A stretch of 64,000 bases of DNA from IMG/VR virus record IMGVR_UViG_3300022602_000025; one strand, written 5' to 3'. The translations under genes and the position numbers were made by a program. The notes beneath the pieces were generated by a model, which saw only the letters and a program-made list of their open reading frames with translations, had not been told where the DNA came from and searched no databases. Positions 45,071 to 59,188 of the stretch are shown piece by piece (position 1 is the first letter of the stretch; each line of letters opens with the position of its first letter). The DNA is from a virus (Duplodnaviria > Caudoviricetes).

Positions 45071-45631
45071 ATGAATTATAATTGCCCTTGGTATTTCAAA
45101 ATACCAAATCACGTACCTCCAACAGTATGCGATGCTATTATTAGTCAAGCTCGAGAGCTGGAACTTAGACAAGCTAGAATTGGATTAAACCCAGATCAAT
45201 CTGTATTAGATGATCAAACTAGAAATAATAAAATTGCATTTATTAGCCGCGATAGTTGGTTAAGCGGAATCCTAACAAGTTTTGGTGCGATGGCAAATGA
45301 CAAAGCCCACTGGAATTTTCATATTGCAGAATCTGATGATATACAAATAGCATCTTACAAAGAAGGCGAAAAATACGACTGGCACACTGACGAAAGCATC
45401 CTATCTCGCATGGGTGCAGTACAACGTAAAATAACAGTGGTATTACAGCTAAACAACACTAGTGAATTTACAGGTGGCGGACTATTCCTAAAAGGAGTAG
45501 AAGGTAATTTATTAGCCAATCAAGGCGACATCGTTGCGTTTCCTTCTTATATGGAACACATCGCAGAAACAGTAACCTCAGGTGAACGGCTTTCTGCAGC
45601 AACTTGGATAATGGGAAATTATTTTTCATGA
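45071..45631 (+). CDS. 2OG-Fe(II) oxygenase (prolyl-4-hydroxylase/PKHD-like)
   Basis: Y..GEKYDWHTD, RKITVVLQL...FTGG, GDIVAFPSYMEH...VTSGER. Confidence 0.9.
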   Translation: MNYNCPWYFKIPNHVPPTVCDAIISQARELELRQARIGLNPDQSVLDDQTRNNKIAFISRDSWLSGILTSFGAMANDKAHWNFHIAESDDIQIASYKEGEKYDWHTDESILSRMGAVQRKITVVLQLNNTSEFTGGGLFLKGVEGNLLANQGDIVAFPSYMEHIAETVTSGERLSAATWIMGNYFS

Positions 45632-46248
45632 TTAAAGATAACGTAATTATAATTGACAACGCAATCAGCGAAGGTCAACAAGACATATTAGAACAACTGT
45701 GTACCAGTGTAGACTTTCCTTGGTACTATCAGCAATCTGCGGCCTATAGTCCAGAGATGTATAAGCTGATGGGAGACAACTTGTATTTCCCAGTTACTGA
45801 TCAATCTCGCGAAACTCCGTTTTTATGTCATGTAGTGTATAACTCAGTGGAAAAGGCTGTAACACACTTTTTACATTATTTTACACCATTGATTACAGCG
45901 GTACCTACTACAGTTGATCAACTGATTAGTATCAGAACTAATCTAACATATCCAGACCCTAGTGCAGGTCCTAATACTCACGGAATGCCACACGTAGATT
46001 GTGATCATCCAAGATTAATCACAGCGATCTATTATGTAAACGACAGCGATGGTGAAACTATTATTTTTAACCAACGCAGAGGATCACCCGATGAGCTCAC
46101 AATCAAACAACGAATCATGCCAAAGCGTGGCAGACTGGTTGTATTTGATGGCACATTCTTACACGCAGGCAACACTCCACGCAACGGTGGACCACGAATT
46201 GTTGTTAATTTGAATATGATTGGATATACCAATAATACGGCAAATTAA
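45628..46248 (+). CDS. 2OG-Fe(II) oxygenase
   Basis: PHVD, AIYYVNDSDGET, PKRGRLVVFDG..LHAG, RIVVN. Start moved to the ATG overlapping the upstream TGA. Confidence 0.85.
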   Translation: MIKDNVIIIDNAISEGQQDILEQLCTSVDFPWYYQQSAAYSPEMYKLMGDNLYFPVTDQSRETPFLCHVVYNSVEKAVTHFLHYFTPLITAVPTTVDQLISIRTNLTYPDPSAGPNTHGMPHVDCDHPRLITAIYYVNDSDGETIIFNQRRGSPDELTIKQRIMPKRGRLVVFDGTFLHAGNTPRNGGPRIVVNLNMIGYTNNTAN

Positions 46249-46312: not shown

Positions 46313-46384
46313 AAAGATTCTTAGATGTAGTTGCATTTAAGAAACAGGCATAAAACAAAGGCACATAATATAAGGAGAAATAAC

Positions 46385-47398
46385 ATGGCATCTTTGGCAG
46401 AAATTAGAGCAAAACTTCAGGCATCAAGCCAACAAAACACTGGCGGTTCCGCTGGTGGTGACAACGCAATTTTCGCACACTGGAACATCAAAGAAGGTAG
46501 TACTACAACAGTACGTTTCCTACCTGATGCAGACCCAAACAACACTTTCTTCTGGATTGAACGAGCAATGATCAAATTGCCATTCGCCGGAATCAAAGGT
46601 GAAACAAATTCCAAACCCGTAACAGTACAAGTACCTTGCATGGAAATGTGGGGAGAAACTTGTCCTATTCTTACTGAGGTTCGTCCTTGGTTTAAAGACA
46701 AGAGCTTGGAAGATATGGGTCGTAAGTATTGGAAAAAGCGTAGTTACTTGTTCCAAGGTTTTGTAACTAACACCGATTTACAAGAAGATAAAACACCAGA
46801 AAATCCAATCCGTCGTTTTATCATTGGTAGCCAAATTTTCAATCTTGTTAAGAATGCTCTTATGGATTCTGAGATTGAAGAACTACCAACAGACTATGTT
46901 CGTGGTTTAGATTTCAAAATCACAAAAACATCAAAGGGTGGTTATGCAGACTATTCAACATCAACTTGGGCTCGTCGTGAACGTACTTTGAGCGATGAAG
47001 AAAAAGCCGCTATTGACACTCATGGTTTGTTTGATTTAAAATCATTCTTACCTAAGAAACCAGGCGAAGTAGAACTCAAGGTTATCAAAGAAATGTTCGA
47101 AGCATCAGTAGATGGCGAAGCATTTGATATGGACCGTTGGGGACAATACTACAAGCCAGCAGGTATGGGTGGTAGTGGTCAAGCAACTGGTGCTCCAAAA
47201 GCATCAGCAGCTGTGTCAACAACCGCAGGAGAAGATGATGAGGCCCCTTTTGAGACAGCGGCGTCAGCACCCGCAGCTCAAGTTGCTGAAAAGGCTCCTG
47301 TGGCAGAGAAAACTGAATCAGCGTCAGCAGGTTCGGATGCAAGTGATAGAGCAAAAGATATCCTTGCAATGATTCGCAATCGCCAAGCAAAACAATAA
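46385..47398 (+). CDS. gp32: Single-stranded DNA-binding protein
   Basis: VRFLPD...FW.ER, CMEMWGETCPIL, LDFKITKTSKGGYADYSTS, acidic/Ala-rich tail. True start MASLAEIR follows the SD aaggag. Confidence 0.92.
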   Translation: MASLAEIRAKLQASSQQNTGGSAGGDNAIFAHWNIKEGSTTTVRFLPDADPNNTFFWIERAMIKLPFAGIKGETNSKPVTVQVPCMEMWGETCPILTEVRPWFKDKSLEDMGRKYWKKRSYLFQGFVTNTDLQEDKTPENPIRRFIIGSQIFNLVKNALMDSEIEELPTDYVRGLDFKITKTSKGGYADYSTSTWARRERTLSDEEKAAIDTHGLFDLKSFLPKKPGEVELKVIKEMFEASVDGEAFDMDRWGQYYKPAGMGGSGQATGAPKASAAVSTTAGEDDEAPFETAASAPAAQVAEKAPVAEKTESASAGSDASDRAKDILAMIRNRQAKQ

Positions 47399-47411
47399 TT
47401 AGGAGATAGGC

Positions 47412-48479
47412 ATGACAAAGAGCTTTGATATTTCGAAGTTCCGTAAGTCTATCACTAAATCTATTGATGGCTTAGGAATTGGTTTCAACGATCCAACAGA
47501 TTGGATCTCAACTGGCAACTATGCACTAAACTATCTTATCTCAGGGGACTTCTTTAAGGGAGTTCCCCTTGGTAAGGTTACAGTTTTTGCAGGAGAGTCG
47601 GGCGCAGGTAAATCATATATCTGTTCAGGTAACATTATTAAGTCCGCACAAGAACAGGGCATTTTTGTTGTCTTAATTGACACAGAAAACGCACTAGATC
47701 AAGCGTGGTTAGAAGCATTAGGTGTTGATATTTCAGAAGAAAAACTTTTGAAACTTAACATGGCGATGATTGATGATGTTGCAAAAACTATCAACGAGTT
47801 CATGAAAGAATACAAATCAATGCCAGACGAAGAACGTCCAAAGGTATTGTTTGTAATCGACTCACTTGGTATGTTGCTTACTCCAACTGACGTAAATCAG
47901 TTTGAAGCAGGCGACTTAAAAGGTGATATGGGCCGTAAACCTAAAGCACTTACAGCATTAGTTCGTAACTGTGTAAATCAGTTTGGTAACTATAATGTTG
48001 GACTTGTTTGTACAAATCACACATACGCTAGTCAAGATATGTTTGATCCAGATGATAAAATCTCAGGCGGACAAGGCTTCGTTTACGCAAGTTCTATCGT
48101 GGTTGCCATGAAGAAGTTGAAGTTGAAAGAAGACGAAGATGGTAATAAAGTAAGTGATGTATTGGGTATTCGTAGTGCTTGTAAGATTATGAAAACTCGT
48201 TACGCAAAACCGTTTGAAAGTGTACAAGTTAAGATTCCGTACTCAACAGGTATGGCTCCTACTTCCGGATTAGTTGACATGTTCGAGAAAATGGGTGTAT
48301 TATCTAAAGTCGGGAATAAATTAGCATACACTAGTAAGGAAACTGGTGAGATTGTTGCAGAGTTCCGTAAAAACTGGACTGAAGATAAGTTACATATCAT
48401 CATGAAAGAATGGGATGCTAACGCTCTCGCAACTACTACAACAACAACTACTACTGACGCAGAGGAAGAAGAAGCATAA
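47412..48479 (+). CDS. uvsX: RecA-like recombinase
   Basis: FAGESGAGKS Walker A, IDTENALD, VIDSLG, DMGRK, TNHTY, SGG.GF.YASSI. Confidence 0.95.
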   Translation: MTKSFDISKFRKSITKSIDGLGIGFNDPTDWISTGNYALNYLISGDFFKGVPLGKVTVFAGESGAGKSYICSGNIIKSAQEQGIFVVLIDTENALDQAWLEALGVDISEEKLLKLNMAMIDDVAKTINEFMKEYKSMPDEERPKVLFVIDSLGMLLTPTDVNQFEAGDLKGDMGRKPKALTALVRNCVNQFGNYNVGLVCTNHTYASQDMFDPDDKISGGQGFVYASSIVVAMKKLKLKEDEDGNKVSDVLGIRSACKIMKTRYAKPFESVQVKIPYSTGMAPTSGLVDMFEKMGVLSKVGNKLAYTSKETGEIVAEFRKNWTEDKLHIIMKEWDANALATTTTTTTTDAEEEEA

Positions 48480-48728
48480 ATGGATGAACATCTAATTATG
48501 ACAATTTGGGATATGTTCCGTGAATATATCCCTGAGAAAAATCGTGAAATGGCAGCAAATCAATATGTTGATTTTTTGTTGGGTAATGATATTGACGTGG
48601 ACACACTTCAATCTTACACAGGATATGATCCTCATCTTGATGAAGCTATAAAATCTGTAACCGATGAAGAAGAATCTTTTGAAGAAGAAGATGACGGCTA
48701 CGGGTACGACGAAGACGAGGATTATTAA
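48480..48728 (+). CDS. Hypothetical acidic protein (82 aa)
   Basis: Abuts uvsX and uvsY; acidic C-terminus. Confidence 0.65.
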   Translation: MDEHLIMTIWDMFREYIPEKNREMAANQYVDFLLGNDIDVDTLQSYTGYDPHLDEAIKSVTDEEESFEEEDDGYGYDEDEDY

Positions 48729-49183
48729 TGAGCTGGTACTCAAAAGTTAGTAAAGATATTAGTCATCTGCCTGACTGTATTGAGTACTATTACGGCGAAT
48801 TAACCACAGCACGGCAAGAGGTTAAGGTCTATGGAAACTTAGAAAAAACCTCTGCTGCGCTGCCCGGAATTGTTGAACACAGATTTAATCAATTGCAGGA
48901 AATCGAAGGTGTGTTGGAGTATCTGAACATCGAACTCCGACGCACTCGTTCGAAAGCATTTAAAAAATATTTGGAAAACTATCAACGTGCTTTGAGCAGT
49001 CGTGATTGCGAAAAGTATTGTGAAGGTGAGCCAGATGTTGTTGATCTAGAAAAGATCGTAAACGAATTTGCTCTATTAAGAAATCAATGGTTAGGCATTA
49101 TTAAGGCGTTAGATATCAAGCAATGGCAAGTATCTAATATTATTAAACTACGTACCGCAGGTATGGAAGACGTGCAAATTTAA
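48728..49183 (+). CDS. uvsY: Recombination mediator
   Basis: Helical; ALSSRDCEKYCEGEPDV...KALDIKQWQVSNIIKLRTAG. Sits between uvsX and uvsW. Confidence 0.8.
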   Translation: MSWYSKVSKDISHLPDCIEYYYGELTTARQEVKVYGNLEKTSAALPGIVEHRFNQLQEIEGVLEYLNIELRRTRSKAFKKYLENYQRALSSRDCEKYCEGEPDVVDLEKIVNEFALLRNQWLGIIKALDIKQWQVSNIIKLRTAGMEDVQI

Positions 49184-49184
49184 T

Positions 49185-50408
49185 ATGTTCATTGAAGACA
49201 TTATCTTAAAAGTTACCAACTTTAATTCGTGGGTAATTGGCGGCACATCAGTATCTATTAACTGGGCGCCTCAAGACGAGAAGTTTATCTACAGTATTGC
49301 TGAGCAGATTGCGTATTCTAAAAATTCGCTAACAGAAAAGCAAGCCATATACATAGTTAGACTATTGAATAGAAATAGAGATCAAATCATTCCTTACATT
49401 CCTCATCTTGATTCTTTTTTGATTAGTCCTAAATGGAAGGATCCGTTTAGAGTATTGCCTAGATCTAAGAAATTAGACATTGAAAAACTGAATGACGAAT
49501 TAGTCATTACAGCTGAGTTTCCATTTGACACAATTATCGTAGAAACCCTGCGTAAACAAAATTCAACAGCACGTATGTTTGAAAAAGGTGCGTGGAGTAA
49601 TGACGTTAGAAAGTGGGTATACCCGTTGAATGAAAACAATATTCTCAAACTTGGTGATATGCTATTGCCACGAGAATTTTCAGCATCAGACGAATTTCTA
49701 AATCTCTATCAAGAAGCAAAAGTCATTCGTGATGATATAGAAAAGCACTTACCGATGGTAGTGTTGGACGACAACAAATACCAAATTAAAAACGCACACC
49801 GTAATATACCTCAGCCAGAAACAGACAATGTTACTACGGCTCTGTTCCATGCTAGAAAATATGGAATACACATTTGGGATGACGAAATCCAAAAACAATT
49901 TGATGATCAAGTCAAGCCTATTACCAAAAAAATACTATTGCATCAGTCTGGTACTAATGAACAGCTATGGATTGACAGTCGTGTAATTCCACTTGATGCG
50001 TTTGACGACTTGATTAATAACAGCGAAAAAATATTGGTAATCATTCCTGGTGGAAGTGAACTAGAAATGATTAAACAATGGAATGAGCTTGCACTACGCA
50101 ACGGATTATCTCGTGAACGTTTGTCAGTATTGTTCCGCTTGCCTAACGAACAAGCAGACTTTAACAAATACGTGAAAGATAATCTTTTAAACAACCCAAT
50201 TGATGAAAATACCAAAATTGTTTTCATCAGTACTAAAATCACTAAACCATTAGTAAAAGCAGGTCTACAGTTTGACACAATTTTTAATCTAGGCTATTAT
50301 AGCTCGATGCATTTTAGTGTTTCCGCTGTGGTTGAAAATGTTTGTAATTTAGTGTATTATAGTATGAAGGAACCGAATCCACGCAGACAATGGCAACAGC
50401 TAAGATAA
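49185..50408 (+). CDS. Hypothetical protein coupled to UvsW (407 aa), possible HARP-like segment
   Basis: LTEKQ motif, then WSNDVRKWVYPL resembling HARP-type strands. Overlaps the uvsW start. Confidence 0.55.
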   Translation: MFIEDIILKVTNFNSWVIGGTSVSINWAPQDEKFIYSIAEQIAYSKNSLTEKQAIYIVRLLNRNRDQIIPYIPHLDSFLISPKWKDPFRVLPRSKKLDIEKLNDELVITAEFPFDTIIVETLRKQNSTARMFEKGAWSNDVRKWVYPLNENNILKLGDMLLPREFSASDEFLNLYQEAKVIRDDIEKHLPMVVLDDNKYQIKNAHRNIPQPETDNVTTALFHARKYGIHIWDDEIQKQFDDQVKPITKKILLHQSGTNEQLWIDSRVIPLDAFDDLINNSEKILVIIPGGSELEMIKQWNELALRNGLSRERLSVLFRLPNEQADFNKYVKDNLLNNPIDENTKIVFISTKITKPLVKAGLQFDTIFNLGYYSSMHFSVSAVVENVCNLVYYSMKEPNPRRQWQQLR

Positions 50409-51850
50409 CAATTAAAGACGAAGTCAATGTTAAAATTGAAGGATTAGATCTTGACACACGGAAAGATTTAGTTAAGAAATTTAAGTATTTTGACCAAAAG
50501 GCCCGCTATATGCCGGCCTACCGCCTTGGGCGTTGGGATGGATGTACTCCATTTTTTGGACTAGGTGGAACCACTTATGTTAGTCTATTAGACAGGGTGT
50601 TACCACTTTTAGACCAGTGGGGATACTACATTGAAGTAGAGGACCTAAGACGCCCAATTACCCTGGAATTTCCCAAAGTTCAGGCAGATTTTTGGGGTGA
50701 TGCGACATGGCCAGAAGGACACAGATTTGCTGGTGAGCCAATTCGTTTACGTGATGACCAAGTTGAGGTAGTCAACAAGTTCCTTGAGAATCCACAATGT
50801 ATCCAAGAAATTGCCACTGGCTTTGGTAAGACAATTACCACCGCAACTTTGGCGAAAATTTGTGAAAAATACGGTCGAACAGTGACTATTGTTCCAAACA
50901 AAAGTTTAGTTGAACAAACTGAAGAAGACTTTATCAACTGTGGTTTAGACGTTGGTGTGTACTACGGCGACAGAAAAGATTTAGATAAAACGCACACAAT
51001 CTGTACTTGGCAAAGTTTGAATATTTTGGACAAAAAAGGCAAAAATGCCTCAGAAAATGAGGAAATTTTGACCGTTGCAGAATTGCTGGATAATGTGAAA
51101 ACTGTCATGGTTGACGAAGTTCATATGGCCAAGGCAGAAGTTTTAAAAAACTTGCTAACTCGCAACCTTGCTTACACACCAATCCGTTGGGGTTTAACAG
51201 GAACCATTCCAAAAGAGGATATTGACTTCGAAAATATCCGTGCAAGCCTGGGAGAAGTGGTTCATCGTGTCAAGGCACATGAATTGCAAGAAGCAGGTGT
51301 GTTAAGCGATTGTCATGTGAATATTGTACAGACGCAAGAGTGGAAAGAGTTTGGAAGTTACCCAGAAGAATTAAAATATCTTGTCACAGATGATAACAGA
51401 ATGGCATGGGTAGCCAAGCTAATTAACAAAATTTCTGATTCAGGAAACACTCTAGTACTAGTAGATAGAATTGAATCAGGAAAGTTTTTAGTAAATGAAT
51501 TACCTGACTCAGTTTTTATCAGCGGTGCTGTAAAAACAAAAGATAGAAAAGAAGAATATGATGAAGTTAAAACTGCTGATAACAAGATTATTGTGGCGAC
51601 TTACGGTGTGGCCGCTGTGGGTATTAATATTCCTCGGATTTTCAATATGGTGCTTCTGGAGCCCGGAAAGAGCTTTGTCCGCGTTATCCAATCTATTGGA
51701 CGAGGCATTCGCAAAGCAGACGATAAAGACTTCGTCCAAATCTGGGACATAACAGCAAATTCAAAATATGCGAAACGACACTTGACAGAGCGAAAAAAAT
51801 ACTACAAAGAAGCCAAGTACCCGTTTACAATTGAAAAGGTTAAAATATAA
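50390..51850 (+). CDS. uvsW: SF2 DNA helicase
   Basis: LRDDQ, IATGFGKT, MVDEVH, GLTGT, ATYGVAAVGINIP, QSIGRGIR. Confidence 0.95.
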   Translation: MATAKITIKDEVNVKIEGLDLDTRKDLVKKFKYFDQKARYMPAYRLGRWDGCTPFFGLGGTTYVSLLDRVLPLLDQWGYYIEVEDLRRPITLEFPKVQADFWGDATWPEGHRFAGEPIRLRDDQVEVVNKFLENPQCIQEIATGFGKTITTATLAKICEKYGRTVTIVPNKSLVEQTEEDFINCGLDVGVYYGDRKDLDKTHTICTWQSLNILDKKGKNASENEEILTVAELLDNVKTVMVDEVHMAKAEVLKNLLTRNLAYTPIRWGLTGTIPKEDIDFENIRASLGEVVHRVKAHELQEAGVLSDCHVNIVQTQEWKEFGSYPEELKYLVTDDNRMAWVAKLINKISDSGNTLVLVDRIESGKFLVNELPDSVFISGAVKTKDRKEEYDEVKTADNKIIVATYGVAAVGINIPRIFNMVLLEPGKSFVRVIQSIGRGIRKADDKDFVQIWDITANSKYAKRHLTERKKYYKEAKYPFTIEKVKI

Positions 51851-52353
51851 TGCAAATACTAACGTTAGATAACAAGACATTCTATCTGAATGATCTTCCA
51901 GAAGAAATAGATGAGGATCTTAGATATGCTGTCATGGATAACAGTGACCCGCATAATCCAGATTATTTTTATCTACCCTTAATCTTTTTAGAATCATTTA
52001 GTGGTCCTGCCGCTGTATTGAGAATAGGAAAACATGAAGTAACCATGCCGTTAGACTGGTGTACGATCGTAGGAGATCCTACAGGACCAGAGATGGAAGT
52101 GCTTCCGTTAACCAGTTTGAATGATCGTGGGTTTAAGACTTTCTGTTTTAATCCGCTGAAGAGCTTTAGACCAGAGTTCCATGAAATTGACATCATTAAT
52201 GTGTACCCAGAAGTTAAATGGTACTTCCCTAAAATGAAACCAGGACAGCTATTATGTACACCGTTGCATAGTGGAGGAAATCCGTTGTGCGCCTACTTTG
52301 TTAAAGAAGTCAGCAGACAAAGCGAAGTAGTATATTATACTAAGTGTTGGTAA
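51850..52353 (+). CDS. Hypothetical protein, possibly a degenerate Hint-fold domain (167 aa)
   Basis: Beta-rich pattern (ILTLDNKTFYLNDL; VLRIGKHEVTMPLDW) reminiscent of Hint blocks, but the catalytic residues are absent. Confidence 0.55.
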   Translation: MQILTLDNKTFYLNDLPEEIDEDLRYAVMDNSDPHNPDYFYLPLIFLESFSGPAAVLRIGKHEVTMPLDWCTIVGDPTGPEMEVLPLTSLNDRGFKTFCFNPLKSFRPEFHEIDIINVYPEVKWYFPKMKPGQLLCTPLHSGGNPLCAYFVKEVSRQSEVVYYTKCW

Positions 52354-52354
52354 T

Positions 52355-52639
52355 ATGGGCAGTCTTAAACCAGGTGCAACATACATTTATGAACGTCAAG
52401 GCGGGACAATATATGCTCGCGAATTTGGCGCACCTCATGAAGAGAGATTCGCTATAGGTTGGGATTGGGAACCAGAAAACAATCCAGCAAGAGTTAGAGG
52501 AGCGAGCGTGGACGATATTAGAGAATCACACCTTTGGCACGAAATTAAAAAAGCATCACTAACCAATCCTGCTTTACATGAAGCAATTGAACGTGTTAAA
52601 ATATTATATTACTTGAGCCAAGAAAAAGATGCCACTTGA
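52355..52639 (+). CDS. Hypothetical protein (94 aa)
   Basis: Coupled ORF in the replication operon. Confidence 0.65.
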   Translation: MGSLKPGATYIYERQGGTIYAREFGAPHEERFAIGWDWEPENNPARVRGASVDDIRESHLWHEIKKASLTNPALHEAIERVKILYYLSQEKDAT

Positions 52640-53084
52640 TATTAAACGTGAACTAGCAGGTGTAGATCTTAGAAATTACGATTTCTATGATAAGTTACCT
52701 CCAGAAGAGCAAAAAGAATTCTCACCATATGTGTTGATGCGATACGTATCAAATGTTGATGGCGATAGAGATGCTCAGGAATATTTTATTGAAATGACTA
52801 ATGAGCTAGTCAATAAAAATCACTGGGTGTTGAGTAAAAATCATAAGGCATTGTTGTGGAAACTGTTTGCAGGATGTGGTGCAGGTGTTAAGATGTATCA
52901 CCCATATCTTAAAGCAAATTCAAAAGAAAAAGCAAACAAGATTGAAAAGTTGCTTGTAGAATTGTACCCAGCGGCCAAACTATCAGACATCAAATTACGA
53001 GCTAAGATGATGACTAAAGCAGACAAAGAAGAACTGTTTGATAAGATGGGTTTTGATAAGAAACAACGAAAAGAATACGAATGA
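52629..53084 (+). CDS. Clamp-loader small subunit-like (T4 gp62-like)
   Basis: FSPYVLMRYVS...MTNELVN...HPYLK...LYP pattern and size resemble gp62 of T4-like phages. Confidence 0.55.
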   Translation: MPLDIKRELAGVDLRNYDFYDKLPPEEQKEFSPYVLMRYVSNVDGDRDAQEYFIEMTNELVNKNHWVLSKNHKALLWKLFAGCGAGVKMYHPYLKANSKEKANKIEKLLVELYPAAKLSDIKLRAKMMTKADKEELFDKMGFDKKQRKEYE

Positions 53085-53776
53085 TGCAATTAGCAGACCA
53101 ACCGTTTAGCTGTACACATTGTGGCAAGGCTTTCATGAAAGAAAAGACCTTGTTTGCCCACATGTGTGAGCCAAAGCGCCGTGCTATGCAACAAAGTGAA
53201 AAGCGTGTACAAGCAGGCTTCATGGCATTCAATCGTTGGTTTAGACTCGCACAAGGCAGTAAGAAAGATAAGACATACGAAGATTTTTGTAAGTCAGCAT
53301 ACTACAATGCCTTTGTAAAATTTGGCAGTTTCGTTAATAACGTAATGCCATTGTATCCAGAAAAGTTTGTAGACTTTGTGATCAAAAGCGGAGTTAAACT
53401 AGACCATTGGTGTCGTGACGAACTGTACGAAACATATCTGTATGAGATGTTAAAAGTTGAACCAGTTGAAGCTGCCGTACAACGTACTATCACAACAATG
53501 ATGGAGTGGAGTGATTCTAGCGGAGCCCAGTGGTATCATTATTTTAACTATGCAAACTTTAATCGTGTAGTGCATGATATTCGCAACGGTAAGATCAGTG
53601 CGTGGGTGATTTTAAACTGTGCCACTGGCAAAAGTATGTTAGAAAATTTCAATGACGAACAACTTGAACTTATCCAGCCAGCACTTGATATTGCCTATTG
53701 GGTCAAACACTTTAAATCAAATCCAGCTGATGTTGCCTTGGTTAAGGAAATATGCAAGGAGAGCGGAATTGACTAA
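53081..53776 (+). CDS. C2H2-like zinc-finger protein of the replication operon (231 aa)
   Basis: FSCTHCGKAFMKEKTLFAHMC at the N-terminus, followed by a helical body. Confidence 0.7.
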   Translation: MMQLADQPFSCTHCGKAFMKEKTLFAHMCEPKRRAMQQSEKRVQAGFMAFNRWFRLAQGSKKDKTYEDFCKSAYYNAFVKFGSFVNNVMPLYPEKFVDFVIKSGVKLDHWCRDELYETYLYEMLKVEPVEAAVQRTITTMMEWSDSSGAQWYHYFNYANFNRVVHDIRNGKISAWVILNCATGKSMLENFNDEQLELIQPALDIAYWVKHFKSNPADVALVKEICKESGID

Positions 53777-54131
53777 ACCATTAGCTACTTCTCAAGAGTT
53801 GCAAGACTTTTGCCAAACATTTGAAGCTCATGCAGAAAAAAGTCCACGAGTATTTAGACGTGCAGTTAAACACGAATACAATTGGTATTGTGATCCGGAC
53901 GCTCTATCAACCGATGATTTTGGTTCTTATCAGATGAAGATAGAAAATATTGAAGCATTAGCAATACATATTCCTTATCATAGACTTGATGATTTTTATC
54001 AGGTAGTAAGTGATAAAAGAAAATATAAAGAGATGGAAATTAGGAATAGAGTGCCTGCCGTTAAGCTAGCATACGAACGTTATCAGATGTTGTTAAAGAT
54101 GTGTGGCGGAGATTACGATGCCGGATATTGA
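53769..54131 (+). CDS. Hypothetical protein (120 aa)
   Basis: TTG start overlapping the previous stop, with GGAG ~7 nt upstream. The longer start in the ORF track is unlikely. Confidence 0.6.
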   Translation: MTKPLATSQELQDFCQTFEAHAEKSPRVFRRAVKHEYNWYCDPDALSTDDFGSYQMKIENIEALAIHIPYHRLDDFYQVVSDKRKYKEMEIRNRVPAVKLAYERYQMLLKMCGGDYDAGY

Positions 54132-54684
54132 TATCGACTTTGCTGACAGAACTAAAGTGCTCGATGTTATTGAGCATATTCCTGCACGTATAGACACTCA
54201 CAAAAAACATAACACAGGTGTATTTTGTCAAAAGATACCTGTTGATCCGATGACAGGGTTAGCTAGTATAAACTACAAAGAAGCAGAAGAAAGAGGCTAT
54301 TTTAAAATAGACTTTTTAAATGTCAGTATCTATGAAAAAGTTAAAGATGAAGAACATCTCATCAATTTAATGAATAAGGAGCCACTATGGGATCTAATGG
54401 AACAGGACGACTTCACGAATCTTCTCTTTCACGTGAATGGGCACGGGCACGTATTGAGGCTGATGAAACCGAGAAGTATAGAACAGCTCGCGGCTTGTCT
54501 GGCAATCATACGCCCCGCAAAGAAACATCTCTTAGGGAAATCGTGGAAGGAAGTTATGCAAGACGTGTGGACGAAACCAACGACTGACGAGTACTACTTT
54601 AAGAAGGCTCACGCAATGGCGTATGCTATAGCGGTAGTAGTACAGATGAATTTAATTTGCGAAGAACTTAACGAACACGTCTAG
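54118..54684 (+). CDS. Miniature DNA polymerase III alpha (DnaE/family C) catalytic core (188 aa)
   Basis: Ordered DnaE motifs MPDIDIDF, KHNTGV, GYFKIDFL, LAIIRP, YFKKAHAMAYA. SD ggag 6 nt upstream of the ATG at 54118. Confidence 0.8.
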   Translation: MPDIDIDFADRTKVLDVIEHIPARIDTHKKHNTGVFCQKIPVDPMTGLASINYKEAEERGYFKIDFLNVSIYEKVKDEEHLINLMNKEPLWDLMEQDDFTNLLFHVNGHGHVLRLMKPRSIEQLAACLAIIRPAKKHLLGKSWKEVMQDVWTKPTTDEYYFKKAHAMAYAIAVVVQMNLICEELNEHV

Positions 54685-55054
54685 GGTTTTTAACTAGCTG
54701 TATTGATTTACGTTTGATACGTTTTTCAGCTATGTCGCTAAGATTAACTGTAGGACCAAAGACTATTGTAACGTCTTTGCTGTTGAATGTTTTTATTGTA
54801 GGGCGGAATTGTAGCATGTCCGCTTTTAAGAATATGTTGATGGGTATTTTACGATTAGATTCCCACCACCAAACTTCGCCTAGTTCTAGAAATCGCTGTT
54901 TCTCTAGATCTGTACGAATAACCCCGAGATCATATATGCTGGTAACATTCATATCGTAATTTATAATGATACCGACGTATTCCTCATCACAGGATCTTAT
55001 ACAAGTAATAAATGGAAAATTTTGTTGAAATTGGTCAGTTTTTTGTGCTGTCAT
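54668..55054 (-). CDS. Hypothetical protein (128 aa)
   Basis: Compact ORF with a WWWESNRKIPINIFL motif, convergent with mini-DnaE and divergent from 55074. Confidence 0.7.
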   Translation of the reverse strand: MTAQKTDQFQQNFPFITCIRSCDEEYVGIIINYDMNVTSIYDLGVIRTDLEKQRFLELGEVWWWESNRKIPINIFLKADMLQFRPTIKTFNSKDVTIVFGPTVNLSDIAEKRIKRKSIQLVKNPRRVR

Positions 55055-55073
55055 TATCTAATAAATACGTATT

Positions 55074-56174
55074 ATGAACAAGTTACCAGTCTATTTATAT
55101 CCCAATACTTTAACGGTACTGCTAGATTTGGACGAAAATAGGAGCACGAATAACGTTATGTATCAACGCAAACTAACCATCCAAAAAGGTTACAGAGATA
55201 GTATCCAAATCCAGTTTAAGAACTCGGATCAAAAGCCTTTACCTCTTTCTTCAACTACTTATGTATTTGATATGATAGACCCTGACGGAAGAGAATTAGT
55301 ATTAAGCAAACCGTTAGTAATGATAGACGATACTGTGGTCTATACATTAAATCAAGCTCAGACTGGAACTAATGGCACACTAACATTTGATAACACTACA
55401 GGTATTATTCCTGGACAGGCTGTAACAGGGTTTGGCCTACAAGCCAACACTATAGTAACCAATGTTCAAAGCGGTACAGTCAGCATCAGTGCACCTACTA
55501 TCTATCAATTAACAACTTCAACAACGATTACATTCAGTACTGTGGCTAAACGTGGTCTAGCTCTAGCACAGTTTGAACCAATTGAAACTATTAACCTATC
55601 ATCAGGTGACTACAAGTTCATAGTTAAACAAGACAACGGTGATGGTACATTTACTCCTGCGTATGCTAACACTTACTATGGCATCACAGGCGAAGTTAGT
55701 GTTGTAGATGACGGATTCCCAATTGGATTCCCAGTACAAACAATCGCACGTAATCAACTTACTACCAGCGGTAGCCAATTCAATAGAACATTTGGCACAC
55801 AAGGCTATAATTTCTATTCAGGTTGGTTCCGTCCAATATCACATTCTGTAACTACATCAACAGCGCAGAGCGTTTTAATTGCTCTAAGCAATTTTGCTGG
55901 AACAGTTACAGTTGAAGGTACATTAGATAACGTACCTAGCGGAATTGGTGCCGCTAATGCTCAAGCATTCACCATAACCAACTATGTTTCTACATTACCT
56001 ACACAAGGAAATGTCCAATTAAGTTGGAACACAGCAGCCGTAGCCATTCGTGTAGTGGTTGTACCTGCTAGTGATGCATTTGGTAATAATTATTATCCAA
56101 GTGGCAATCCGCCCGGAAGCAATATCAATCAATTCCCAAGCGGTTTCGTTGACTCTATCCAATATTTCAGTTAA
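55074..56174 (+). CDS. Late-expressed beta-rich structural protein (366 aa)
   Basis: TAAATA-6 nt-ATG. Thr/Ser/Gly-rich Ig-like composition; KLTIQKGYRDSIQIQFKNSDQKP. Confidence 0.55.
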   Translation: MNKLPVYLYPNTLTVLLDLDENRSTNNVMYQRKLTIQKGYRDSIQIQFKNSDQKPLPLSSTTYVFDMIDPDGRELVLSKPLVMIDDTVVYTLNQAQTGTNGTLTFDNTTGIIPGQAVTGFGLQANTIVTNVQSGTVSISAPTIYQLTTSTTITFSTVAKRGLALAQFEPIETINLSSGDYKFIVKQDNGDGTFTPAYANTYYGITGEVSVVDDGFPIGFPVQTIARNQLTTSGSQFNRTFGTQGYNFYSGWFRPISHSVTTSTAQSVLIALSNFAGTVTVEGTLDNVPSGIGAANAQAFTITNYVSTLPTQGNVQLSWNTAAVAIRVVVVPASDAFGNNYYPSGNPPGSNINQFPSGFVDSIQYFS

Positions 56175-56177
56175 AAT
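56149..56177 (+). promoter_or_regulatory. Sigma70 promoter for primase, -35 embedded in the upstream gene
   Basis: TTGACT(56149)-17-TAAAAT(56172), then only 6 nt to the primase ATG. Confidence 0.7.
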
Positions 56178-56183
56178 AGCAGT

Positions 56184-57176
56184 ATGAATCTCATACTCGC
56201 AACTGTACAAGCAGCCTTGCCACCTAAACGTAAAATTACGCCTAGTGGCTGGACCAGCTTCAATGCGGTTTGCTGTACACACAATGGCGAAAGGCCAGAT
56301 AATCGTAAGAGAGGTGGATTTTTACTCAGTGGCGATGGCTTCCAATACCACTGTTTCAACTGTAACTTCAAAGCAGGGTGGACTCCTGGTAAAACACTAA
56401 GTAAAAACACTAAAAATCTCTTGAAGTGGTTAAACATATCAGACGAAGAAATCAACAAGTGTGTCATTGAAGCACTAAAAAGCAAAGATGAGATCCAAGC
56501 AACACCTGTGCCTAAGAATTTTGTCATTGAGCCAAGACAATTACCAGATAATGCTCTTCCAATAGAAGCATGGATGGACGCAGGTTGCGAAGAACCAGAA
56601 TTTTTAGAAGTGGTTGCGTACATTTTAGACAGAGGCATGGAACTTGATTGGTACAACTGGCACTGGACTCCAGAAGCAGGTTATCGTGATCGTGTGATAG
56701 TGCCATTTTACCTAGAAAAGAAGGTTGTAGGCTATACAGCACGAAAAATACGACCAGGCAATCCAAAATATTTGACTCACATTAGTCCAGGTTATGTTTT
56801 TAACATCGACGCACAGGACTGGGATAGAAAATATGTGATAGTGGTTGAAGGGCAGTTTGACGCTATCGCGGTAGATGGTGTTGCTATTGGTCATAATGAC
56901 CCAAATGAAGCCCAAATTTCCAGAATTAACGCATTGGGCAAGGAAGTCATAATCGTGCCTGACAACGACCGTCCTGGGGCTAAATTAATATCCGCGGCAC
57001 TTGAAAATAATTGGTCAGTGAGTTTACCTGACTGGGGCGACGATGTAAAAGACGTTGCAGATGCGGTTAAAAAATATGGCAGAATTTACACACTTTTCAC
57101 GATTTTACAGTATCGCGAACAAAATCAAATAAAAATACAATTACTAAAGAAGAAACTAGAACATGGCGCAGAATAA
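56184..57176 (+). CDS. gp61: DNA primase
   Basis: Zn-binding CCTH...YHCFNC and TOPRIM VVEGQFDA...IVPDND...DWGDDVKDVAD. Confidence 0.92.
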   Translation: MNLILATVQAALPPKRKITPSGWTSFNAVCCTHNGERPDNRKRGGFLLSGDGFQYHCFNCNFKAGWTPGKTLSKNTKNLLKWLNISDEEINKCVIEALKSKDEIQATPVPKNFVIEPRQLPDNALPIEAWMDAGCEEPEFLEVVAYILDRGMELDWYNWHWTPEAGYRDRVIVPFYLEKKVVGYTARKIRPGNPKYLTHISPGYVFNIDAQDWDRKYVIVVEGQFDAIAVDGVAIGHNDPNEAQISRINALGKEVIIVPDNDRPGAKLISAALENNWSVSLPDWGDDVKDVADAVKKYGRIYTLFTILQYREQNQIKIQLLKKKLEHGAE

Positions 57177-58605
57177 TAAAGACACAGTGGTTCCAAATTA
57201 CAGTTACGAGATACAAAAACTGTATCTTGAAATGTTTATGAGTGATGCAGTTACGTTTGTACGCTGTCAAAACATTTTTGATCCTGAAAATTTTGACAGA
57301 AAATTGCATGACACAGCCAAATTTATTACTGAGTATGTAAACGAATATAAAGTGATGCCAGAAGCATCAATCGTTAACGCTAGCTGTAACGTAGACCTTA
57401 ATCCAGTTGAATTACCCGAAGAAAATTACTCTTGGTTGATGAACGAATTTGAGCAATTTTCACGTCACAAAGGGCTTGAACGTGCGATTTTAAAATCAGC
57501 TGATCTGTTGGAAAAAGGCGACTACGGTCCTGTTGAAAAGATGATCAAAGACGCTGTACAAATCAGTCTGCAGAAGGATATGGGTACAGATTACTTTGAA
57601 GATCCTAGGGCACGTCTTGAAGCATTGAAGAACTCAAATGGTCAAATTTCAACAGGTTGGCCCACTGTCGACAAGAAATTGTATGGTGGATTTAATCGCG
57701 GCGAATTGAACATTTGGTGTGCGGCATCAGGTGGCGGTAAATCATTATTCTTAGCAAACTTAGGCTGTAACTGGGCACTAGCAGGATTAAATGTGCTTTA
57801 TCTAACCTTTGAGTTGAGTGAAAATCTAGTGGCTATGCGTATGGATAGTATGCTGACTAATATACCAACTCGTGAAGTTTTTAAGAACTTAGATGACGTT
57901 GAACTTAAGGTTAAAATGATGGGCAAGAGTGCAGGATCAGTACAGATCAAGTATATGCCATCAGGTAAAACTTGTAATGACCTGCGAGCTTATCTCAAAG
58001 AATATCAGGTCAAAAAAGGGCATAAACCAGACATTCTATTAATTGACTATTTGGACTTGATGATGCCAATGTCAGTCAAAGTTAGCCCAAGCGACCTGTT
58101 TGTCAAAGACAAATATGTGTCAGAAGAACTGCGTAACTTGGCCATGGAAACACAAGCTATCGTAGTAACAGCGAGTCAGTTAAATCGTGCGGCAGTTGAA
58201 GAAATTGAGTTTGATCACTCACACATTTCAGGTGGCTTATCCAAGATCCAAACAGCGGATAACGTGATTGGTATCTTTACATCAAGGGCTATGAAAGAGC
58301 GTGGACGCTATCAAATCCAGTTTATGAAAACTCGTAGTTCAAGCGGTGTGGGTCAAAAGGTAGACTTAGAATTTGACCTAGATAGCCTGCGTATCCGTGA
58401 CTTGGGTGAAGAAGATGAAGGCAGTTTTGCCAAACCTAAACAGAGCATCTATGATGGCCTAAAGAAAACTAGCACAGTAGTAGACACAGAAACTGGGGAG
58501 ATTAAAGATCCTACTCAGGGTATTGCTGTGAACAAGATCAAGAACGTAGCAGCAACTTCAAAAGTGCGAGAATTGCTGGCTAATTTAAATTCGGAAAAAG
58601 ACTAA
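57163..58605 (+). CDS. gp41: Replicative DnaB-type helicase
   Basis: GFNRGELNIWCAASGGGKS, LTFELSE, IDYLDLM, TASQLNR, KTRSSSG. Confidence 0.95.
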   Translation: MAQNNKDTVVPNYSYEIQKLYLEMFMSDAVTFVRCQNIFDPENFDRKLHDTAKFITEYVNEYKVMPEASIVNASCNVDLNPVELPEENYSWLMNEFEQFSRHKGLERAILKSADLLEKGDYGPVEKMIKDAVQISLQKDMGTDYFEDPRARLEALKNSNGQISTGWPTVDKKLYGGFNRGELNIWCAASGGGKSLFLANLGCNWALAGLNVLYLTFELSENLVAMRMDSMLTNIPTREVFKNLDDVELKVKMMGKSAGSVQIKYMPSGKTCNDLRAYLKEYQVKKGHKPDILLIDYLDLMMPMSVKVSPSDLFVKDKYVSEELRNLAMETQAIVVTASQLNRAAVEEIEFDHSHISGGLSKIQTADNVIGIFTSRAMKERGRYQIQFMKTRSSSGVGQKVDLEFDLDSLRIRDLGEEDEGSFAKPKQSIYDGLKKTSTVVDTETGEIKDPTQGIAVNKIKNVAATSKVRELLANLNSEKD

Positions 58606-59162
58606 AACAGTTCAGAGATACGGGTAGTAACACATTGGTCTATGGCAAAAGCCCACTGTGATTCGCCCGTTTCGTTTAAGCAGATGTCTGCACTAGCGGG
58701 TGCAGTCAACCATTGATGTTTAGGCGTCCAGGGTGCTTCTCCGCTCATTTCACCATCCAACTGCCCAGCTGACCAAACAGCTAGCCCTATACCAGCTCTC
58801 CACAGTCTAGGGCCTTCACCCCCTGCGATAGCGGCCAATATTGAACGATCACCTGTGATACCCAATTCGTCATTGATGCGTAGGGTACTGGTGCTGAACC
58901 AATCTAGCGTATGCACTACCTGTACCCTATTAGATTCTACAGGACCCCCAATGTACACAGGCTCATCTAGATCGCTGTCAATACCAGCAGCAGTCATGAT
59001 AGCGGCCATGTTGACCGTGATACTGCGTTTGTTAACTACAACACCCCAAGCACCCTGAGCTCCATGCTGGGCAACTAGTATGACACTTTTAGCAAAGTGC
59101 CCATCAGTATTTTGTGGCTGTGCTACCAGCACTTGACCCATTAAATTTTGTTTGTCCGTCAT
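58602..59162 (-). CDS. yqgE: YqgE/AlgH (DUF179) family protein
   Basis: VLVAQP...FAKSVILVAQHG..GAWGVVVNK, YIGGPV, WSAGQLDGE...W. Start moved to the second ATG (59162), 5 nt after TAAATA. Confidence 0.85.
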   Translation of the reverse strand: MTDKQNLMGQVLVAQPQNTDGHFAKSVILVAQHGAQGAWGVVVNKRSITVNMAAIMTAAGIDSDLDEPVYIGGPVESNRVQVVHTLDWFSTSTLRINDELGITGDRSILAAIAGGEGPRLWRAGIGLAVWSAGQLDGEMSGEAPWTPKHQWLTAPASADICLNETGESQWAFAIDQCVTTRISELF

Positions 59163-59188
59163 AGCCATATTTAATCAATAAATACACC
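59163..59188. promoter_or_regulatory. Divergent pair of late promoters (yqgE / nucleotidyltransferase)
   Basis: TAAATA on - (59168-59173) and on + (59179-59184), 5 nt and 4 nt from the respective ATGs. Confidence 0.7.

Follow-up and report, generated by a model that had tools for sequence, protein, structure and literature searches.

The open reading frame (ORF) at position 54118 in a 64,000-nucleotide stretch of the IMG/VR virus record IMGVR_UViG_3300022602_000025 (the window) very probably codes for one half, the C-terminal subunit, of a minimal C-family nucleotidyltransferase that group 2.2 (Rak2-like) jumbo phages specify with two genes; this enzyme would serve as an auxiliary polymerase. 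Bacterial chromosomes are replicated by C-family polymerases, which normally comprise 1000-1400 residues; the conserved core of the split enzyme amounts to about 290, with residues ~75-170 coming from an N-terminal protein, the N-unit, and the remainder from the 188-residue protein of the window, the C-unit. The gene and its translation signal are as follows.

54118..54684, + strand: probable C-unit of a split minimal Pol III alpha, 188 amino acids (aa); palm strands with D3/D5/D7 and K63/D65, reduced fingers with R132-P133 and K162-K163-x-H165, without thumb
54106..54117, + strand: ribosome-binding site, GGAG plus a 6-nt spacer, within the 3' end of the upstream ORF, as read from the sequence

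A first-pass annotation, made from the letters of the window, had described a miniature DnaE polymerase with a clean Shine-Dalgarno sequence, start and stop, five DnaE motifs in order, the full catalytic Asp triad, a deleted thumb and reduced fingers. All of these features were recovered. The ORF runs over 188 codons from an ATG start to a TAG stop, and the motifs are located between residues 2 and 170: PDIDID (2-7), KHNTGV (30-35), GYFKIDFL (60-67), LAIIRP (128-133) and FKKAHAMAYA (161-170). Their occurrence in this order is far beyond chance. Because 81 of 81 orthologues from viral contigs start with MPDIDID, followed by F or L, we take the ATG at 54118 as the true start and not the GTG at 54103; the chain starts exactly at the first catalytic strand. 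The last 14 nt of the upstream ORF lie within the gene, an overlap that hints at a shared transcript and at coupled translation.

How firmly is this small protein tied to DnaE? The family profile phrog_11778 ('DNA polymerase', 197 positions) matches the C-unit with E 1.1e-68 (residues 3-183 against profile positions 8-194), and phrog_405, the 1190-position profile of full-length Pol III alpha, does so with E 8e-9. Searched on the whole 151-kb contig, phrog_405 matches this ORF alone, in three collinear pieces (profile 441-454, 579-678 and 773-809). The sole Pfam match to the C-unit is DNA_pol3_finger (E 0.023). A profile of 83 diverse homologues matched only DnaE-type chains in the PDB and aligns on E. 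coli alpha with residues 399-406 (MPDFDVDF), 539-641 (GLVKFDFL, ALFRPG) and 740-769 (FNKSHSAAYA). At the residue level, D3/D5/D7 correspond to D401/D403/D405 and K63/D65 to K553/D555, so that the triad D3, D5 and D65 falls on E. coli D401, D403 and D555; in the fingers, R132-P133 corresponds to the RP of ALFRPG and K163/H165 to K758/H760.

The structural prediction gives the same assignment. An AlphaFold2 model of the C-unit on the family alignment has a mean predicted local distance difference test score (pLDDT) of 96.7 and a predicted template modelling score of 0.89, and the first 16 PDB matches in Foldseek are all C-family polymerases. The model superposes 181-185 of its 188 residues on E. 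coli alpha 400-781, with the chain ending at the equivalent of residue 781. A DnaE stretch of about 382 residues is reduced to 187 in the C-unit: roughly 195 are deleted, which removes the thumb completely and the fingers in part. In the model, residues 21-36 form a beta-hairpin in place of the thumb, and 24 residues separate D7 from H31, compared to about 105 in E. coli; what is left of the fingers is a helical bundle in which the RP and KKxH motifs persist. The C-unit has the Pol-beta-like palm with three catalytic Asp (D3, D5, D65) of a C-family catalytic subunit. Its polypeptide, beginning at the PDxDxD strand, does not include the GS (R-G-S) triphosphate-binding loop.

In relatives, this loop is found on a second protein. 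The Atu_ph07 paper lists gp316 as 'Pol III alpha'. Counting genes from the clamp-loader gene gp312 onwards, we take this to be a 177-aa protein, which matches phrog_11127 (E 2e-70), PF07733 at positions 18-94 (E 5e-9) and phrog_405 at 361-435. Since the match of the window ORF to phrog_405 starts at 441, the N-unit ends where the C-unit begins. N-units (phrog_11127, PF07733) are about 170 aa long and stop 5-10 residues short of the PDxDxD strand. The closest long relative is the 270-kb genome G001, whose C-unit is 70% identical; its N-unit has 168 aa, carries GVGRGSS and ends in DWREFLR-stop. GVGRGSS is invariant in 41 of 41 N-units and corresponds to the region of E. coli R362-G363-S364, which we take, from the structural literature on DnaE, to be the loop that binds the triphosphate. 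As the N-unit holds the loop that binds the nucleotide as well as the helices that open the Pol-beta fold, the C-unit alone is an incomplete palm.

The two units also travel together. An N-unit is present in all five long relatives searched (G001, Phosso, PAC2, PBECO4 and Atu_ph07), where phrog_405 matches just the N-unit (359-437) and the C-unit (578-679 and 778-809). Each unit matches 96 phage records (for the C-unit, by tblastn), with near-identical genus tallies; the identified difference is four short Clostridium-phage matches for the N-unit. Among the 40 C-unit matches listed, almost all are jumbo phages. In the records examined, the two genes lie between 31 kb (PBECO4) and 224 kb (Phosso) apart. 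The N-unit has a further part of its own: its first ~75 residues (e.g. L090:1498-2004, - strand; residues 1-80 of the metagenomic protein P0227) are without a DnaE counterpart and are modelled with a pLDDT below 55, with W73 and P76 invariant and D4 and Y21 conserved in at least 90%.

These findings speak to the two proposals that the first-pass annotation had made for the enzyme: a stand-alone palm with a new job, or the core of a multi-subunit polymerase completed by the products of the neighbouring genes at 53081, 53769 or 54668. Neither survives in that form, as the GVGRGSS loop and the first part of the palm are encoded by a separate N-unit gene, at a distance of tens to hundreds of kilobases in the relatives examined. 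None of the three neighbours qualifies as the missing half of the palm: 53081 matches phrog_11058 and 54668 phrog_11637, 53769 has no family match, and DnaE profiles do not match any of them. That the 188-aa protein suffices by itself, for priming, tagging or hand-off, is consistent with its invariant Asp triad and K63, the confident fold of the monomer model and a contig without a partner gene. We nevertheless consider it highly improbable: the GS loop and first palm helices reside on a co-occurring protein that ends just before the C-unit in DnaE coordinates, truncation of the contig explains the lack of a partner, and natural fusions of both units exist.

Three metagenomic proteins of 375-376 aa (P0227, P0271 and P0272) match phrog_11127 at residues 8-180 and phrog_11778 at 190-374, and the match to phrog_405 is continuous across the junction. 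The fused genes were found on independent ENA and Logan contigs (L091:1066-2193 and L095:519-1649). In L095, the fused gene occupies the C-unit locus, as the convergent gene downstream is homologous to the one at 54668-55054 in the window (E 6e-9). The closest relatives of both halves are split forms, at 59-66% identity, which suggests that the fusions arose by secondary re-fusion. In the closest split relative (P0277), no PF07733 gene is found beside the C-unit, so that this relative lends no support to a fusion by the simple removal of a stop codon that once separated neighbouring genes. The fused protein was modelled from a small alignment (A6), and larger mixed MAFFT alignments of N-units, C-units and fusions (A2, A3, A5) were discarded, as they forced the halves together.

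But what about the phage of the window itself, on whose contig the N-unit is missing? The contig is a virus fragment of 151 kb, with a CheckV completeness of 43%. Searches of it for PF07733, PF00136 and phrog_11127 gave no match, and no family-B polymerase is found on it. By tblastn of its ORFs, the contig (G000) is collinear with G001, with 12.9-24 kb corresponding to 1.8-20 kb and 86-150 kb to 99-157 kb, and it ends at about 157 kb of G001. In that genome, the family-B polymerase lies at 165-167 kb and the N-unit at 191.4-191.9 kb, so the contig stops about 8 kb and 34 kb short of them. As it ends before both syntenic loci, their absence is uninformative about the phage, and the partner gene would be expected just beyond the contig end. 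The search for a family-B polymerase and further DnaE parts elsewhere in the genome, which the first-pass annotation had proposed, came up empty on the contig and found the family-B polymerase and the N-unit in its collinear relative. In Atu_ph07, the family-B polymerase is annotated as two adjacent ORFs of 565 and 417 aa (L007:16878-19847), compared with a single 890-aa frame in G001 (L092/L093), and appears to be a second split polymerase in the same phage group.

The remaining modules of a bacterial replicase were not found. PHP (PF02811) had no match in four complete isolate genomes or G001, and positions 810-1190 of phrog_405, which cover the beta-clamp-binding/HhH and OB modules, are unmatched in five of five relatives. 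Altogether, thumb, distal fingers, clamp-binding/HhH and OB modules are missing from the genomes searched. The enzyme is therefore a minimal one and not an ordinary Pol III cut in pieces. Of the possibility raised at the outset, that the missing DnaE parts are encoded elsewhere and restore an ordinary split Pol III, the first half holds for the N-unit; with PHP, thumb, clamp-binding and OB modules absent from the relatives, the second does not.

Could the gene be a decaying remnant of a captured host dnaE, or one part of a split-intein DnaE? Cyanobacteria possess a split DnaE joined by an intein, and the protein of the window is short and DnaE-derived. The size and conservation of the family speak strongly against both ideas. 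A word-indexed search of 90%-identity clusters returned at least 8000 clusters at E <= 0.001, the 120 best of which are 187-202 aa long, and an exhaustive search of 50%-identity representatives gave 432 matches, 280 of them at E <= 1e-10. Conservation was scored in 83 representatives that are 30-60% identical to the C-unit of the window: D3, D5, K63, D65, R132 and P133 are invariant, and D7, H31, G34, K162 and H165 are conserved in at least 90%. The ratio of nonsynonymous to synonymous substitution rates (dN/dS) has a median of 0.13 and a range of 0.03-0.26 (Nei-Gojobori, 374 orthologue pairs with dS 0.05-1.5). Purifying selection and an invariant Asp triad, the properties that the first-pass annotation had singled out for checking, point to a protein under selection, presumably a catalytic one, and not to a relic. 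A remnant would hardly retain such a dN/dS together with the fixed N-terminus MPDIDID. As for a split intein, the N-units end in EFL(K/R)-stop and the C-units begin with M-P-D, chains of 168-188 aa leave no room for an intein half, and no Cys, Ser or Thr is found at the C-unit start. We give both ideas almost no credence.

Isolate homologues of the C-unit, at 33-53% identity, are found in Phosso, PA5oct/PAC2/MIJ3, Atu_ph07, GAP32, CBB, 121Q, PBECO4, K64-1/Rak2, XacN1, SCTP-2 and RsoM2USA, and almost all of these are T4-related jumbo phages. At the nucleotide level, megablast of 52000-56500 against phage records gave no match; the relatives are recognized by their proteins only.

Taken together, we favour the following mechanism. 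The C-unit supplies the metal-binding residues D3, D5 and D65, K63 and the finger module with its RP and KKxH motifs, and the N-unit, as seen in relatives, the preceding palm helices and the GVGRGSS loop. The two chains would assemble non-covalently into one active site of the Pol-beta fold, in which D3, D5 and D65 catalyse two-metal nucleotidyl transfer while K63 and the GRGSS loop hold the triphosphate. Templated DNA synthesis is the most likely activity. Lacking a PHP/proofreading domain, thumb, clamp-binding and OB modules, the enzyme is expected to be distributive, with low processivity, and auxiliary. It might work beside the phage's family-B replicase, for instance by filling short patches during recombination-dependent replication, in repair or in the processing of primers.

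Several points weigh against this picture. No biochemical test of any family member was found in the literature, so that complex formation, templated synthesis and the use of deoxynucleoside triphosphates as substrates are all inferred. Without thumb and HhH/clamp-binding domain, the enzyme has no evident means of gripping primer-template DNA. The model of the fused protein, with a mean pLDDT of 74.7 and residues 1-80 below 55, is of moderate confidence only, and for the phage of the window, the presence of N-unit and family-B polymerase is extrapolated from the collinear relative. The loss of the main DNA-gripping modules would also fit a two-part enzyme that is active and non-templated, for instance in DNA or RNA end tailing, in making a nucleotide signal or in modifying protein or DNA, like many small enzymes of the Pol-beta fold. 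We regard such a transferase as improbable and retain the auxiliary, templated polymerase as the preferred interpretation.

The genes around the C-unit place it in a replication context.

46331..51850, + strand: gp32-like single-stranded DNA-binding protein (SSB), UvsX, UvsY, a 407-aa ORF and UvsW-like helicase (phrog_1192, phrog_97, phrog_231, phrog_16)
53081..53776, + strand: protein with a weak C2H2 zinc-finger match (phrog_11058, E 7e-56; zf-C2H2, E 0.002, 18.8 bits, under the 25.2-bit cut-off)
54668..55054, - strand: 128-aa protein of phrog_11637, a family of unknown function (E 2e-34); convergent, its 3' end overlapping the C-unit gene by 17 nt
56184-57176, + strand: DnaG-type primase (phrog_47, E 1e-34)
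57163-58605, + strand: DnaB-like helicase (phrog_19, E 2e-73)

This bears out the T4-type setting described in the first-pass annotation, with SSB, UvsX, UvsY and UvsW upstream and primase and DnaB-like helicase downstream, as well as its remark that no PHP or C-terminal DnaE fragment adjoins the gene: none is found beside the ORF or on the whole 151-kb contig. The relatives share a gene order of helicase (UvsW or DEAD-box), mini-DnaE, a small convergent gene, one or two further genes, primase and helicase, and UvsY is also found upstream of mini-DnaE in PAC2 and PBECO4. The gene directly before the C-unit gene of PAC2 carries the annotation of a C2H2-domain protein. Phosso, PAC2 and PBECO4 have a small reverse-strand gene at the position equivalent to 54668, and a homologue of the phrog_11637 protein adjoins the fused gene in contig L095 (27% identity, E 6e-9). 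The phrog_11637 protein is a candidate functional partner of the C-unit. It is tempting to go further and to picture the two-piece mini Pol III as the smallest natural templated C-family polymerase, which recruits the phrog_11637 protein or the C2H2-like 231-aa protein in place of its lost modules and serves a dedicated step of recombination-dependent replication beyond the reach of the family-B replicase, but this idea is tentative, and we think it rather unlikely to hold in full.

Three other loci nearby deserve mention. The 407-aa ORF between UvsY and UvsW (49185-50408, + strand) has no Pfam or PHROG match; in PBECO4, its slot is taken by a 272-aa protein annotated as 'DNA polymerase exonuclease subunit'. 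Just upstream of the gp32-like SSB, two tandem, slightly overlapping genes encode 2-oxoglutarate-Fe(II) oxygenases (45071-46248, + strand; PF13640, E 1e-13 and 2e-9). Directly after the DnaB-like helicase and on the opposite strand lies a gene for an AlgH-like, host-type protein (58602-59168, - strand; DUF179, PF02622, E 3e-32).

Parts of this system carry labels already. PHROGs names the family of the C-unit 'DNA polymerase', the Joint Genome Institute annotation for many homologues is 'DNA polymerase III alpha subunit', and several isolate records give DNA polymerase or Pol III alpha; the main text of the PA5oct omics paper makes no mention of the N-unit or C-unit genes. With at least 8000 clusters at 90% identity for the C-unit, mini Pol III is very common in environmental jumbo phages. 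It offers a tractable system in which to study the requirements of a minimal replicase core of the bacterial type, and the reason why T4-like jumbo phages retain another polymerase, from outside family B. Mini-DnaE is a published family and should be regarded as a subunit of an enzyme split in two; its interest is now a matter for the bench and no longer one of discovery.

Finally, we would place the enzyme among its known counterparts. Bacterial DnaE (E. coli 2HNH, Taq 3E0D, M. tuberculosis 7PU7) and PolC (3F2B) share with it the Pol-beta-fold palm, the three Asp, the Lys of KxD and the RP and KSH motifs, whereas the palm of the phage enzyme is divided over two polypeptides. The C-unit is 23-25% identical to Taq and M. 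tuberculosis DnaE and 13-14% to PolC. As identity is higher to DnaE and the sequence matches are to DnaE chains only, reduction from a DnaE-type ancestor is weakly favoured over a primordial form, the ancestral state that Iyer et al. 2021 proposed (PMC7824862); it is a possibility that mini Pol III, as such a reduced form or even as an ancestral one, marks the smallest catalytic unit that a bacterial replicase can have. In the cyanobacterial split DnaE, the alpha subunit is likewise made from two distant genes. The phage protein differs in that the split lies inside the palm, before PDxDxD, and in that intein halves are missing, so that the two chains must associate non-covalently. Cid1, poly(A) polymerases and CCA-adding enzymes also combine a GS loop, DxD and a third acidic residue in a small alpha/beta core of comparable size. 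The closest counterpart is the 'minimal, split DNA polymerase III alpha' of group 2.2 jumbo phages, described by comparative genomics by Iyer et al. 2021 (Viruses, PMC7824862), so that the system, proposed in the first-pass annotation as undescribed, was already known. Family, phage group and neighbourhood are the same: phrog_11127 corresponds to the N-unit and phrog_11778 to the C-unit, and the ORF of the window is the 'C-terminal Mg2+- and DNA-template-binding' unit. An auxiliary role in repair, recombination-dependent replication or primer processing was likewise suggested there (PMC7824862). That study described split forms only (PMC7824862), to which the present analysis adds the fused ones.
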